Shown in pieces: positions 8,796 to 51,115 of a DNA stretch of 64,000 bases. The stretch's first letter is position 1. Every line of letters starts with the position of its first letter. Source of the DNA: a virus (Duplodnaviria > Caudoviricetes); the IMG/VR virus record IMGVR_UViG_3300031993_000012, positions 1 to 64,000 of that record; one strand, given 5' to 3'. Made by a program: the position numbers and the translations under genes. A model generated the notes under the pieces. That model was given only the letters and a program-made list of their open reading frames with translations. It did no database searches and was not told the origin of the DNA.

Positions 8796-8913
8796 TAATA
8801 TTCTCGATATAATTATATCCAGATGAATACTGAAATTGTAATTAGATATACTACTATAGTATATCTACAGAAGTAGACAATTTTTATTCTTAAGAAAGAA
8901 CGGTGATTATATT

Positions 8914-21477: not shown

Positions 21478-24400
21478 TTATGATCTACGGCGCTGTACAT
21501 CAACGATGATCGGAACACGGAGGATCAGACCACGGAATACAACCTTAACACGACAAATTACAATGTCGCCGCCGTCTGTATTGAGTCCACGCTCGAACTG
21601 AATATCGAGTTCATCTACAAGAGAACCAACCCAGTTTGCGAACATTGTATCACACTCAGACTTAAGTGTCTTAAGAACTGAGTCATCAGAATATCTGTAG
21701 AGATACTCTTCAACCTTATTCTTCAACAGATAGCAGAGCTGTGAAAGTGTACGCATATTGGATTCCTGAACGAGGTCAGAAGTCTCTTCGTTGTAGAATG
21801 TTCTCTGAGTAGCACGCTTGAGATATCCGTTTGAATCTGGGAGCCAGATATTTGCAGAGTGACCCCAAACACGTGCACGCTCTTCCCAGTTGTTTGAATC
21901 GATATCTGGGAATACCGATACATACTCTGTAGGAGCGATTGTTGTGAAGTTTCCAGTAAATGGAACGTTGATTGTTTCATTCTTACAGTGTCTGATGAGG
22001 TTATCAACAGAACGCTTTACGAATGTATATGTGTAACCATCAGGTGTTGTAATACCACCGAGATCCCATGATGCATTCGGATTGTCGAATCTTGTATCGA
22101 AAGACTTCTCCAGTGCAGCAGCAACTTCGCCGTCAGTAATACAAGCATCGAAGAGTACCTGGAATCCTGAACCAGGACCAATTGGTCTCTTATCTTCGGG
22201 AATACCGTCGTATACACGCTCGATCATAAGATCATACATAGACTGCTTAACATCGATATCCTCAGGCTCAAGATCATCAATGATATCCGGATTATAAAGG
22301 ATTCTATCCTTTTCATCATCACTGAAGTTAACCGAACCGTTGATCCAGTCAGAAACTGAATGCTGTACAGGTGTGAGGAATGATGCACCAACAACGGTGT
22401 TATATGCTGCATCAAAGAGGAACTTTGCAGGTGTTCTGACAGTTGACTTGATTGACGGATCAATCTGACCACGGAATGCCTGTACAAGCAATGCTGCATA
22501 CTTATACTTGAATACAATCTCATCGATAGTATCATCATCAAGGAATCCAGCACTACCTTCACTGAGTACAACACCACCGTATGTTGAAGACAGGTTCTCA
22601 CCGTATGTAGGTGAATAGTAATCATCAGGAATCTTTACACCGTCAGTGGAGATTCTGTACAGTGAACCGATGATATTACCAACAACATAACGCTCAATCT
22701 CAACAGGTGATGCAGATGGAGTAACATTATAAGGTGCATTATCATCAGCAGTAATAGTAACCTTGATGTATTCGTTTGTATGATCCTCAGCAGTTCTTGT
22801 AAGGTATATAGCATTGCTGATAAGTTTTGTAGGTGTAGTTGAAGCATTACCAGGGATAGGTGTAACTTCCGTTGCACTACCATCGGCTCCGACACCTGTT
22901 ACGGTGAACTGTACATTCGGATCTGCTTCACCTTTACTGTAGTAAGTACCAGCAGCCCATGTAGGAGCGGCATCGCCTGTAACAGCAACATACTGTTTGG
23001 ATGAAGTATCGAATGTGAAATATGCTTTATAGTTTGTATCCCAATCAGTCGGTTTAGCTGTAGTGAGTGCATATTCTGTTGGTCTGAAGTATGTGTTAGG
23101 ACTCCATTCAGGAGCACTTTCACCAGCAGGCACAGCGGTATAGTCGCCGGTCGATGTCTTATATTCGTAATATCTTGTGTATTTCGTAGACCAGTCAGCA
23201 GGAGCTGTTTCAGATGTTACCTGAGTATATGCACCGTTTGTCATGACAACGTCACCAAGATTGAATCTGTGGCTACTTGCTGTAACTGTAGCTTTAGTGA
23301 TACTCCACTTAGTAATATCAGCTTCATTATATGCTATAATATCATAGCTCTGACCGATAAGATCAGTGGTGGTACCTGCTGAAGTAGGAACATTACCAAA
23401 CTTCAATGTGTTGTCATTGATATTGATTCTGTTAGCAGGGAATTCGGTTTCTGCTGTAACTTTATAGCCGTTAATGTAAACCTTACCGTCATAGATATCG
23501 ATAACTGGATATCCTACTACAGACTTACGCTTTTCAAGTACCCAGTTAGGCGCTGGCATAGGTGAAGGTGTAGGTTCAGCATGCTGAGCAGTACTGTCAC
23601 ATACAGCAACGATATTGTCCATACCGCTCTTTCTGTTGTAAGGAATAGCAGATATAACCTGAGAAGCAGTATAAGCTGTGCTAGCTGTACCCTCATCTTT
23701 TCTATAGAGAGTGAAGCTGGAAGCACTTGACTCAGAAGAATTAATTACAGCATAGATATCATCGACAACAATGTTATCAGCAGCCAACTGAGCATCAGTA
23801 GGTGTTGTGCTGTAAACCTTCTTGATAGATTTAGATGTATCATTAGCCTGACCACCAACATTAATACCGTTTACAGCAACGTCACCAGCCTTTGCAAGCG
23901 GATAAACTTTGTCGAAAGGTACTGCTGTAATAGCCTGAGTATACTGGTTGATACCGCTGATGAATACAAGTCTCGGGTTGGAATACTTTGATCCAGTAGC
24001 TGTAAGATATACATCACCAACATATACAGAGCAACCATTACGAGTTACACCATATGCAGCGTTGAGCATTTTATCCTCAAGAACTGCCGGATCAACACCT
24101 TCCTGGCCTGAATCGGTAGATACAGTAAGCAGACAGTTGCTTGAAGGAAGTTTCGGAATGCTAGGATCTTCAGCATCTACCTGATAGAAAGGCAGATTTG
24201 TATCAAGACCACCGCTGTGGATATATTTACCGGTAATGATATCGAATGTATTGACATTGAGTGTCTTGAATGTGTTGTTAACGAATGTATCATCATCGTA
24301 TCTACCGCTGTCAATGACTTCCTGATAGTGGTCCTTATACTTGTTGAAGATTTCAACAACAGCCTTTTCATTGATGAAAGGCTTGAGTACAGACGCACCC

Positions 24401-47396: not shown

Positions 47397-48176
47397 ATGG
47401 CACGTACAAAGAAAACAACAGTAGAGGAAGCAACTGAGGAGAAGGTTGCATTCCAGCCCAAGAAGACAGTGAAGCTGTTCTTCTTCACAGAAATCCTTGG
47501 AAGCTGCCCCGCAGACAAGGAGATCTACTCAAAGTACATCGCAAAGAATCGTCTTGATGCACCAACCATTCAGGACGAACTCCAGATGGTACCTGAGGAA
47601 GAAGTTATCGAGCAGGGAACCACTTGCTTCCTGGTGAGGACCCACGGAAAGGATAAGGGTAAGCCCTGTCTGGCAGCGTATACAATTCTCGGTTTCATGA
47701 AAGAGAAGACCAAGTATCTCCGTCAGGAACCCGGTAATGGATTTGACAAATTCACCAACTACAAGTCCAAAATCGATGGTAATTTCAACATTGATAAACC
47801 GTTCATTACATTACATCTTCCCGAAGGAGAAGAAATGGGTATCTGTCAGAGACCTCTCAGGGCCGAGACTGCGCAGGGTCCGAGAGTAGCACTCGCTTCC
47901 AGCCTCACATGCCCTCCCGGTACAACCTGCGAATTCGAGCTCTATATCAATAACAAGGAGTTCAATAAGTACGCAATCGGTTGTCTCCGTAAAGGTTTCC
48001 TCAGTGGAACCGGTCAGTGGCGTTCTTCTCAGCAGAAAGGCAGATTCCTGTTTGAAATCTATGATGCTGATGATACTTATATTGACGGTAATACCAAAGA
48101 ACATGTAGGTTGTCTTTCAACTGATGCCAACTGGGAAGAAATGTGGAGCGACTTCCTCGACGAATATCGTCTGTAA
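47397..48176 (+). CDS. Stand-alone Cas7/RAMP-superfamily-like protein
   Basis: N-terminal strand + ILGS, PCLAAYTILGFMKE (P.I...S.KG..R equivalent), CPPGTTCEFEL strand, Gly-rich loop GTGQWRSSQQKGRF; AAAGGAG RBS. Confidence 0.75.
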   Translation: MARTKKTTVEEATEEKVAFQPKKTVKLFFFTEILGSCPADKEIYSKYIAKNRLDAPTIQDELQMVPEEEVIEQGTTCFLVRTHGKDKGKPCLAAYTILGFMKEKTKYLRQEPGNGFDKFTNYKSKIDGNFNIDKPFITLHLPEGEEMGICQRPLRAETAQGPRVALASSLTCPPGTTCEFELYINNKEFNKYAIGCLRKGFLSGTGQWRSSQQKGRFLFEIYDADDTYIDGNTKEHVGCLSTDANWEEMWSDFLDEYRL

Positions 48177-48190
48177 TACCTAATACCAAT

Positions 48191-48220
48191 AATGAGCGCG
48201 GATAAAACCGCGCTCATTTT
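48191..48220 (+). terminator. Hairpin between the Cas7-like gene and array 1 (terminator or processing site)
   Basis: AATGAGCGCGG-ataaaa-CCGCGCTCATT followed by a short T-run. Confidence 0.6.
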
Positions 48221-48249: not shown

Positions 48250-49252
48250 AGTGTAAAGTAAAGTCGAGTTAGGTTCAGTATTGGTTCAGTGGAGTTAAGT
48301 CTAGTCATGTACAGGTGTTGTGGAGCGGCGCTGTGTTTGGGTGATGCAAAGCGAAGTCTTGCTTAGGTATAGTACGGTATTGTCCCGTATGGGTATGATA
48401 ATGTTCCGCAAAGCACAGTGAGCTTTTGTAACGGTAAAGCTGAGTATTGCAGCGTTGAGGTATAGTCAAGTATGGTTGTGTGCTGTATAGGTCGGGCGAA
48501 GTTTCGTTCTGTATAGTGACGGTATAGTTATGAAGCGTAGCGTAGAGGTATGGCACGGTTACGCGCTGTACAGGCATAGTATGGTATCGTTATGTCATGG
48601 CACTGCATTGTGGTGTCTGGCATTGGCAATGCAAAGTAACGCGAAGCATTGGTGCAGTGAGGTGTTGTTCTGTGAAGGCATCATTATGAATCGTATTGTA
48701 ATGTGTGGATTTAGCTCGGTCTAGTTTTGTCCGGTGACGGCGTAGTAATGTTAGGCGAGGCGATGCAAAGGTGTCGTGCAGTGAAGCACCGTTTAGGCAT
48801 GGTAAAGCATAGCTTTGTTTAGGTGCGGCTGAGTCTGGTCCGGTTTTGTGAAGGTGCAGCAGGGTTCCGTGGTGCACTGTGGCGTAGAGTATCGGTATAG
48901 TCACGTAAGGTTTGGTATAGGCATGGTGTAGTAAAGCATAGTTGTGGTATAGCTATGCATCGTAAGGTTTGTATTGGTATAGTGTAGTCCTGTAACGCTG
49001 AGCACTGGTGTAGCGAGGTATTGCTCTGTCGAGTGGTGGTAAAGCATGACAAGGTAATGTTGAGTAGAGGTGAAGTGAAGTCTTGCGGGGTTTTGCTGTG
49101 GTACTGTGATGCGACCTATTGCTTTGTATTGGTACAGCTCAGCACTGTAATGTCGTGTCAGGTTCAGGTACAGTTTAGCCAAGTGAGGTGGAGTATAGTA
49201 TAGGTATAGATATGTACAGTCAAATGCTGTCAAGGTTAAGCTGAGTAAAGTC
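48250..49252 (+). repeat. Pentamer-periodic NGY-NN array 1 (putative non-coding guide RNA array)
   Basis: Parses as AGT-AA AGT-CG AGT-TA GGT-TC AGT-AT TGGT-TC AGT-GG..., about 1 kb, G/T-rich, no exact repeat units. Confidence 0.9.
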
Positions 49253-49294
49253 TACTTCTGTAATGAGTAAAATATAACGAAAGGAGTCTTATCC

Positions 49295-49696
49295 ATGAAA
49301 GATAAGAAAATCAAGAAAGTTTTGAAGTCGATTCAAAACGGAGAAATCTCAGCCAAACAACTGAAAGAAATCCTTGCTGAAAACCCCGAACTCAAAGACA
49401 TCATTGACTTAGTGAATCCTGAAGTCACATGGAAGAAACATCCAATGTATCCGTTCGTGGAAACATCGAGCAATGGTCAGATTAAAGTTTCTGGTGAACT
49501 TGTAAAGCCACGGGTATGGGATGGCTTGTTGAAAGTAACGCTGCAGTATGGCAAGAAACGGTTATACGCAGCGTTACTCATATTACAATGCTGGGAACCA
49601 TGTCCGGGTAAATTAACCGACTATACTGTCGGTTACATTGACGATAACGTCAATAACCTAAAGCCGTCTAATCTATATTGGAAGGCCAAAAAATAA
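49295..49696 (+). CDS. NUMOD4/HNH-like protein, catalytic His residues apparently lost
   Basis: WKKHPMYP.VETSSNGQIK (NUMOD4-like); LYAALLILQCW replaces VHRLVA..F; VGYIDDNVNNL..SNLYW replaces V.HIDG.K.NN..NL.W; AAAGGAG RBS. Confidence 0.75.
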   Translation: MKDKKIKKVLKSIQNGEISAKQLKEILAENPELKDIIDLVNPEVTWKKHPMYPFVETSSNGQIKVSGELVKPRVWDGLLKVTLQYGKKRLYAALLILQCWEPCPGKLTDYTVGYIDDNVNNLKPSNLYWKAKK

Positions 49697-49707
49697 ACGA
49701 CAGTTTA

Positions 49708-51010
49708 TGTGTAAAGTAAAGTGTGGTTCTGTCGTGTTTTGGCATAGCAATGTGTGATATCGTTTCGTATTGGTAAAGCAGAGCATAGTGTAATGCTGTG
49801 AAGGTATGGTAGGGTAAAGTAACGCAAAGGTATCGCGTTGTTCAGTGATGTGACGGTTTGGTAGGGTAATGTAGTGTGTAGCTATGGCATAGCGATGTTC
49901 TGTGAAGTGCGGTCGCGTATTGGTATCGTAAAGTATTGCGGTGTCGCGTAGAGGTTTAGCTTGGTGCTGTATAGTACTGGTGGAGCATAGTTAGGCACAG
50001 CTGGTCTTTGTTTTGTGCTGGTATGGTATGGCGTAGTATAGTCTGCAACGGTGTAGCAAAGTAGCGCGGTGTTCAGGTATAGTGATGATAGTTTTGTTCT
50101 GTATCGGTAAAGTGCTGTATTGCTGGGTAATGGTATTGTATTGTCGCATATTGTCTTGTGAGGGTGAAGGGCAGTATTGTCGCGTAGAGTAGCGGCAAAG
50201 CATAGTGATGTCGCGCAGCGTCATGGTAAAGTCAAGTGATGCTATATGGTGTCAGGTGATGGTAATGTGGGGCAATGTGTAGTATAGTAGAGGCGAAGTC
50301 TAGCGATGCTAGGTTCTGGTGTAGTATAGTACCGGAACGTCTAGTATTGGTACAGTGGAGTACAGCGTTACGAAGTGCTGGTACTGTTAAGTGATGTGTA
50401 GTGTCGGTATGGTAATCCGTAGTGTAGTAGAGGTAATGTGGGGTGTGGCACTGTATAGGTGTGGTGTAGTGTTGTATCGTAATGTCAGGTAATGGCAACG
50501 TAGTACATGGCAATGGTTCAGTGTAGTGCCGCATAGTCACGTAGAGGTTTAGTCTGGTGCCGCATGGTCAGGTTGCGGTTTAGCCTAGTTTCGCTTAGTC
50601 CAGGTAATGTTAAGTCTAGTGTAGTTTTGGTTCAGTGATGTGTGAAGTAATGGTATAGCAATGTCTGGTACTGGTATGGTATAGTCACGTGAAGTGTCGG
50701 TTTGGCGGAGTAAGGTTTAGCTCAGTGATGGCGTGGTAGAGTAAAGCGCGGCACATCGTCGTAATGGCGTAGTCTCGTATAGTATAGTAAAGGTAAAGTG
50801 AAGTATAGTGCTGTAATGTGCCGGTGAGGCAAAGCAAGGTCCCGCTTGGTATTGGTTTGGTGCAGTCAAGTTATGTCACGGTAACGCAGTACATAGTAAT
50901 GTATGGTACAGGCTCAGTTCAGTAGAGCTATGTTTTGGCGAAGCGGGGTATTGTCAAGCGTAGTATGGGTTTCGCAGGGTCCTGTTATGCATTGTGTCGG
51001 TGCTGTGTGA
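49708..51010 (+). repeat. Pentamer-periodic NGY-NN array 2 (putative non-coding guide RNA array)
   Basis: Same grammar as array 1, about 1.3 kb; begins with the same GTGTAAAGTAAAGT. Confidence 0.9.
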
Positions 51011-51033
51011 CAGCATTAAAAACCTACACACTT

Positions 51034-51076
51034 AAAAAAAGAATATTCCCGGGTCGCTCCCGGGTATTCTTTTTTT
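51034..51076. terminator. Bidirectional intrinsic terminator closing the array locus
   Basis: AAAAAAAGAATAT-t-CCCGGG-tcgct-CCCGGG-TATTCTTTTTTT. Confidence 0.8.
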
Positions 51077-51115
51077 GTTCACGATTTGATAATTTATACG
51101 AAAGGAGTTGTTTTT

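Follow-up and report, generated by a model that had tools for sequence, protein, structure and literature searches.

A probable staggered VIPR system in a phage genome, with five-nucleotide repeat arrays punctuated by an extra G

The stretch of DNA analysed here (the window) comprises positions 1 to 64,000 of IMG/VR virus record IMGVR_UViG_3300031993_000012 (Duplodnaviria; Caudoviricetes), a 182-kb phage contig. It contains a gene for a minimal RAMP protein followed on the same strand by two arrays of 5-nucleotide (nt) repeats, and we consider it very likely that this locus is a VIPR (Viral Interference Programmable Repeat) system with a YNNNG-type repeat and a staggered layout, the units of which serve as short guides. 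It is a large example of a known system and no new kind. VIPR was described in preprints of 2026 as a phage-borne, CRISPR-related silencing system. According to the available part of the main preprint (bioRxiv 10.64898/2026.04.26.720920 = PMC13142463), Vipr is a minimal RAMP, the vrRNAs are tandem 5-nt repeats in which a fixed GGY alternates with a variable NN, and the systems, carried mostly by phages, silence rival elements via gapped RNA-DNA pairing. The same part lists the alternative repeats NNNGG, YNNNG, and NNNNG, and deals with "staggered" vrRNA arrays in one sentence and in the legend of fig. S18, where individual processed vrRNAs are named. What this locus and its relatives add is a quantitative account of the staggered type: a near-invariant extra G (the GG rule, 74/75), the lengths of the units, the gain and loss of whole units, polar unit starts with an A-W-R bias, the accompanying changes in Vipr, and the spread of all this across a clade.

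The vipr gene and its product

We assigned the gene-array pair to VIPR because of the RAMP fold of the protein, its homology to the Vipr of Escherichia phage SUSP1, and the conserved linkage of gene and array. The locus (Table 1) has a small RAMP with a single RNA recognition motif, a thumb hairpin, and a glycine-rich loop; a 5-nt array lies adjacent to it, and there are no other cas genes. The reading frame of vipr is open from 47370, and we placed its start at 47397 because the ribosome-binding site AAGGAG precedes the ATG there by 7 nt and homologues of the protein begin with MARTKK. More than 370 homologues were found. Vipr matched nothing in Pfam or PHROG, and a locus search of IMG/VR with the protein gave no confirmed relative.

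Table 1. Features of the vipr locus in the window
Feature	Position	Strand	Evidence and remarks
vipr, minimal Cas7-like RAMP, 259 aa	47397..48176	+	AlphaFold2 model, Foldseek, hhalign, homologues
Intrinsic terminator hairpin after vipr (predicted)	48191..48218	+	−21.1 kcal/mol, z = −7.1
Array-start 14-mer GTGTAAAGTAAAGT, copy 1	48251..48264	+	unique to the two array starts
vrRNA array 1 (putative)	48251..49255	+	192 tokens, 33 parsed segments; commonest units 26 nt (15), 31 nt (10)
NUMOD4/HNH-like open reading frame between arrays, 133 aa	49295..49696	+	strong ribosome-binding site; phrog_959 HNH endonuclease, 6.7e-11
Array-start 14-mer GTGTAAAGTAAAGT, copy 2	49709..49722	+	unique to the two array starts
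vrRNA array 2 (putative)	49709..51010	+	249 tokens, 46 parsed segments; commonest units 31 nt (18), 26 nt (14)
Terminator closing array transcript (predicted)	51033..51077	+	A- and T-runs flank stem

The AlphaFold2 model of Vipr (pLDDT 86, pTM 0.81) has a beta-alpha-beta core, a long beta-hairpin at residues 157-181, and a G-loop at residues 211-225. When it was compared with known structures by Foldseek, the best 50 matches were all CRISPR RAMPs, mostly of the Cas7 family (Csm3, Cas7-11, type VII Cas7), with a best E value of 3.7e-6; a weak PDB profile match to Cas7/Csm4 was also obtained. Alignment of the Vipr family profile with SUSP1 Vipr by hhalign gave an E value of 9e-5 and covered residues 1-192 of 195, with the G-loop GVGDWRPRFGRF aligned with GTGQWRSSQQKGRF of SUSP1.

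Array grammar and the turnover of units

Both arrays are non-coding and were parsed on the plus strand by dynamic programming into tokens that end in GY, the base preceding GY being left unscored. The parse returned 441 tokens: 362 pentamers, 75 hexamers, 3 heptamers, and 1 tetramer. Within the pentamers (NNNGY), position 4 was G in 95% and position 5 was T or C in 97%, and the remaining three positions carried 1.87-1.89 bits apiece. The base before GY was G in 74 of the 75 hexamers, giving NNNGGY, and in 66 of the 362 pentamers (18%; Fisher p = 4e-43). Hexamers also fell at preferred distances, successive ones being separated by 4 pentamers (29 times), 5 (29), 6 (7), 7 (3), 3 (3), 10 (1), or 11 (1); the 58 of 73 intervals with 4 or 5 pentamers have a binomial tail probability of 9e-35 under a geometric null model of equal slip rate. 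Because of this peak we regard the unit lengths as real, with 26 and 31 nt dominating and 36 and 41 nt next. The autocorrelation of GY agreed, having its maxima at 5, 26, 31, 57, and 62 nt, with the values at 26 and 31 nt as high as that at 5 nt. All units differed from one another; identity at their variable positions averaged 0.30 and reached at most 0.61. A preliminary description of this DNA had claimed that the 5-nt register slips by +1 at NGGY, that the resulting units are mostly 26, 31, or 36 nt long, and that no two of them are identical, and it had proposed a parse with a tabulation of unit lengths and per-position entropy as a check. The grammar held under that analysis on all three counts, and the slips were non-random with respect to GGY.

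The apparent units of 61 nt (~48920-48980) and 56 nt (~50020-50075) could be re-parsed as two units each. In both, a 4-nt token directly precedes the hexamer (TTGT before ATTGGT, CTGC before AACGGT), so that the loss of 1 nt spares the GG mark. Array 2 also contains a local duplication of one 31-nt unit, at 50515-50621. A scan of the whole 182,215-bp genome found the periodic signal absent outside the arrays, and a blastn search with the arrays in 50,697 phage records gave 0 matches. Short runs of 7-8 GY at 5/6-nt spacing do occur away from the arrays, at 23545 in the window and at 104878, 107823, and 121293 of the genome (minus strand, beyond the window); these could be chance occurrences or solo guide units.

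The Fourier peak of the arrays, at 5.15-5.2 nt, is close to half a helical turn, and the signal might be thought to reside in double-stranded DNA, where a 5.17-bp period, two of which make one helical repeat of 10.3 bp, would serve to phase a protein that coats DNA or is centromere-like, instead of encoding RNA. We consider this very improbable. The strands are extremely asymmetric in composition (G 33%, T 31%, A 23%, C 13%), and the motif always lies on the vipr strand; plus-strand terminators bracket the arrays, and the partner protein is, by its fold, an RNA-binding RAMP. The published VIPR mechanism, moreover, explains the 5-nt period. DNA helical phasing was dropped once the VIPR literature was found to match the locus, as were a TRAP-like ring-binding RNA, a Rho loading site on the minus strand, and arrays of primase sites.

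Linkage of gene and array was assessed in the relatives with a downstream intergenic gap, the flanks of L014 lying outside the comparison. In every one, vipr was followed by an array on the same strand with a period of 5.15-5.2 nt and with GG-hexamers. The linked Vipr homologues were 95% (L004), 59% (L005-7), and 41% (L008-10) identical to that of the window, and in the last of these groups the locus sits elsewhere, among tail-fibre genes. A Vipr of ~40% identity together with an array was also present on a Saccharibacteria chromosome (L015), in L016, and on a prophage-like contig (L013). GGY made up 80/81 of the hexamers in L004, 49/56 in L005, 62/65 in L008, 34/36 in L009, 16/16 in L015, and 8/8 in L016, and the modal unit length varied with lineage, being 26 nt in L005, 26/31 nt in the window, and 31/36 nt in L008. 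Three further candidates, L001-L003, which had been considered as kin through their endolysins, proved to be unrelated phages without arrays and were set aside.

Comparison of the window with its 95% relative L004 revealed clean indels of 31, 31, 31, 62, and 52 nt, each of which could be placed so as to begin directly before GGT, with 0-9 nt of alignment sliding; single pentamer indels of 5 nt were seen as well. The extra G was unchanged in all 46 aligned hexamers. The preliminary description had named, as evidence that would count against its reading, indels between strains that did not coincide with unit boundaries; on this count the comparison favoured the reading, since the five unit-sized indels can all be placed at unit boundaries. 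Because these indels can be placed before GGT, they support the view that the unit is an evolving module and a probable guide. The hexamers could instead be neutral slippage products of a decaying pentamer satellite, since a one-base duplication of the G of GY is by itself enough to yield NNNGGY. That explanation is strongly disfavoured, and we give it almost no chance of being correct: it is at odds with the peaked hexamer spacing, with the direction of the slip, which is almost always +1 (75 hexamers vs 1 tetramer), with the constancy of the extra G, and with the finding of the same rule at 40-59% protein identity in arrays that cannot be aligned.

The units also appear to have a direction. 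In three lineages whose arrays are mutually unalignable, the window (48251-51010), L005 (9135-10480), and L008 (8900-10960), the first repeat after GGY was biased to A-W-R: N4 was A in 57-68% and almost never C, N5 was T or A and almost never G, and x1 was A or G. The recurrence of this bias in three unalignable lineages argues for a defined, polar unit start, and we suggest that units seem to begin with a semi-conserved, handle-like GGY-A-W-R-GY. The arrays of L008 (8855-11005) and L009 (8855-10176), which have identical Vipr proteins, were 2.1 kb and 1.3 kb long, respectively; an 827-nt block was present in L008 only, and a segment near the start had been replaced. Turnover of the arrays is thus far more rapid than that of vipr.

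Both arrays begin with the same 14-mer, as the preliminary description had noted, and in the whole 182,215-bp genome GTGTAAAGTAAAGT occurred at these two places only; ~10 nt upstream of the first copy also resemble the flank of the second. It was kept in L004 and was missing from L005 (59%) and L008 (41%). The description inferred it to be a leader or nucleation handle; as it is conserved in the 95% relative only, it cannot be a general handle, but it may be a start element, or one close to a promoter, that is peculiar to this lineage.

Proposed guide code and likeness to other systems

The type II VIPR of Escherichia phage SUSP1, with Vipr YP_009199429.1, vrRNA1-4, and vap1, has been solved by cryo-electron microscopy (10.64898/2026.04.26.720927). 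There, one Vipr protomer covers each 5-nt repeat, sequestering the fixed letters and presenting the variable ones. These variable letters base-pair with double-stranded DNA under a gapped code, so that rival mobile elements are silenced at the level of transcription. In the published helix, a turn takes six protomers in the free state and five once DNA is bound, and one guide known from SUSP1 naturally consists of six units and has a footprint of 18 bp. Our locus resembles it in its homologous Vipr, with the G-loop [D/Q]WR...GRF and the thumb motif RP[I/L], in its 5-nt repeats with a fixed G2 and a fixed Y3, and in the position of the arrays on the vipr strand. In SUSP1, however, the repeat is a strict GGYNN, each vrRNA has 9-16 repeats and a structured ~40-60-nt pseudoknot tail at its 3' end, an upstream element is repeated, and there are no hexamers; whereas the window has xGYNN repeats in tail-less units of 5-7 repeats, ~79 units in all, without an evidently conserved vap gene, and its Vipr has N- and C-terminal extensions relative to that of SUSP1. 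The locus thus lies outside the SUSP1-like type II.

The residues that read the fixed letters differ in the same sense. In SUSP1 Vipr, G1 is read by H17 and D177, G2 by R138 and W178, and Y3 by R179 of the next protomer. By alignment, H17 corresponds to A/S/C46 in the clade of the window protein and D177 to Q216 (59/60), while W178 corresponds to W217 (60/60) and R179 to R218 (52/60); R138 was matched to R161 (60/60) through the shared RP[I/L] motif. We infer that this clade has kept the readers of G2 and Y3 and lost those of G1. The substitutions fit an array that holds G2 and Y3 constant and leaves its first letter free, and the array itself agrees with the residue pattern, G2 being present in 95%, Y3 in 97%, and G1 in only 18-20%.

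Closest to the locus is the staggered YNNNG type. As far as the available text of preprint 10.64898/2026.04.26.720920 describes it, that type shares with the window a lone phage-borne Vipr RAMP gene beside a long intergenic 5-nt array on the same strand, two fixed letters with the rest variable, and guides offset by 1 nt, such that the end of one is the start of the next. A further preprint (bioRxiv 10.64898/2026.10.21.760802) reports, in its available part, non-canonical VIPR repeats (WGT/NN, TGH/NN) recognised by entropy periodicity. These are alike in that the trinucleotide is degenerate at its first letter and a protein with a Vipr-like fold is encoded nearby; their clusters differ in that motifs repeat 10 times, and hexamer punctuation is not mentioned in that part. 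The Cas7 backbone of class 1 CRISPR systems (type I / type III) shares with Vipr the RAMP fold, the thumb, the G-loop, one protomer per RNA segment of fixed length, and periodic base flipping. In contrast, those systems have a 6-nt period, contiguous spacers, repeat-spacer arrays, capping by Cas6/Cas5, and acquisition by Cas1-Cas2, none of which was found at the locus. There were no direct repeats of 23-50 nt with spacers and no cas1/cas2 or effector operons; the window yielded no CRISPR-like repeats and has vipr as its sole RAMP gene, and Rfam at gathering thresholds identified three tRNAs only in the window, with no CRISPR match.

By analogy with SUSP1, we propose that the arrays would be transcribed, processed at GG, bound by Vipr protomers, and used to silence DNA. 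The repeat would be xGYNN (the YNNNG type), in which only G2 and Y3 are fixed, and an extra G every 5-7 repeats would restore a full GGY and shift the frame by +1, giving the tail-less, staggered layout. Each unit of 26, 31, or 36 nt would most likely represent a single short guide, its 5-7 repeats amounting to roughly one turn of the Vipr helix, and the locus would hold ~70-80 different guides. The extra G is probably a processing site or a junction between protomer filaments.

We judge it unlikely that the hexamers are something other than guide boundaries, that is, that the kilobase transcript is coated as one or a few filaments, with the extra G serving as register or turn compensation or as a hinge, and acts as an unprocessed multi-guide polymer or through longer read-through guides. 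Such an arrangement would account for the hexamer spacing of 5-6 repeats, which matches the 6 or 5 protomers that make up a turn of the published helix, for the lack of tails or ribozymes between units, and for the low information content of short units. Filaments in SUSP1, however, cover 12 strict 5-nt repeats, or two turns, with no extra base, and a unit length that varies from 26 to 41 nt is unfit for a fixed geometric need. The possible placement of unit-wise indels exactly at GG and the polar, semi-conserved unit start also argue for short guides, as do the individual processed vrRNAs named in the figure legend of the preprint (10.64898/2026.04.26.720920).

With other residues in place of SUSP1 H17 and D177, the protein would no longer read the first letter, and x1 might have become a guide base. 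On this speculative reading, which we think rather unlikely to be right, the freed x1 would be a third guide base, a unit of 5-6 repeats would present 15-18 target letters, perhaps contiguous, instead of 10-12 gapped ones, and the extra G would delimit one-turn mini-filaments of 5-6 protomers, either cut from or acting within a kilobase transcript of ~80 guides. If x1 is read, the pairing code and the guide-length ruler would differ from those of the characterised type II system. With its ~79 units the locus would be a convenient test case both for how tail-less vrRNAs are delimited and for the part of x1 in target reading.

Several observations weigh against the assignment of the locus to VIPR with units as short guides. 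The arrays have no 3' tail or pseudoknot, unlike the sole biochemically characterised VIPR type; they are continuous, and no repeated 3' tail was found in them. In the available part of preprint 10.64898/2026.04.26.720920 the staggered architecture stands outside those confirmed by small-RNA sequencing, and our layout fits fig. S18 by the wording of its legend. The hhalign probability for the single SUSP1 sequence was 59%, with the thumb region left unaligned by the automatic procedure. By the published NN rule, a guide of 5-6 repeats would have only 10-12 letters that carry information, so that its specificity would be marginal. Finally, when 265 units were searched by exact matching under five pairing rules against their own genome and the related loci, there was no excess over shuffled guides; with so few informative letters per unit this search is without statistical power. 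All three NN rules came out slightly above the shuffled null, which ignores positional composition. The proposal of the preliminary description that NGGY marks the boundaries of several dozen guides fits the VIPR identity and the unit-wise indels, and no target has been found to go with it.

A single 8-repeat guide (16 letters), searched against IMG/VR under the NN rule with 1 skip, gave 14 matches on unrelated contigs of 39-69% GC, approximately the chance level, and the apparent wobble-phase preference among these matches arises because the pattern has first letters rich in purines. Two contiguous (NNN) guide readings gave 0 matches in IMG/VR. Two of the 14 matches share a Ser/Gly-rich protein motif and come from non-gut contigs.

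Predicted transcript layout and neighbouring genes

Array 1 begins 75 nt after the vipr stop codon, and the hairpin between them is a predicted terminator that would separate vipr from the array transcript. Relative to the window, the corresponding hairpin of L004 (~8810-8837) is altered in both arms in a paired fashion (GAGCGCGG...CCGCGCTC in the window, GGGCGCGG...CCGCGCCC in L004), and the stem is kept. The downstream terminator is probably bidirectional, as judged from the A- and T-runs that flank its stem, and ~40 nt of it are conserved in L005. Terminators bracket the arrays, and none was found on either side of the internal open reading frame (ORF), from which we predict that array 1, the ORF, and array 2 probably form a single transcript.

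The internal ORF had no Pfam match. Its translation, inspected by eye and unaligned, has A and Y at the usual catalytic His positions. It is present in L004 and absent from L005 and L008-L010; L005 carries an unrelated 93-aa ORF at its array, also with no Pfam match, and L008-L010 have no ORF there. The available part of the VIPR preprint mentions Vap proteins with HNH domains (bioRxiv 10.64898/2026.04.26.720920), and the internal ORF may be a degenerate homing endonuclease or a lineage-specific vap-like accessory gene.

The arrays have as neighbours genes for an endolysin, a virion protein, topoisomerase II, and a DUF6275 protein. On the minus strand, a 95-aa ORF at 46918-47205 matches only the C-terminal end of NrdD (PF13597, E 3e-5, under the Pfam cut-off), presumably its glycyl-radical region, and may specify a small protein that acts as a glycyl-radical "spare part"; L005 has a comparable gene of 93 aa close to its array.

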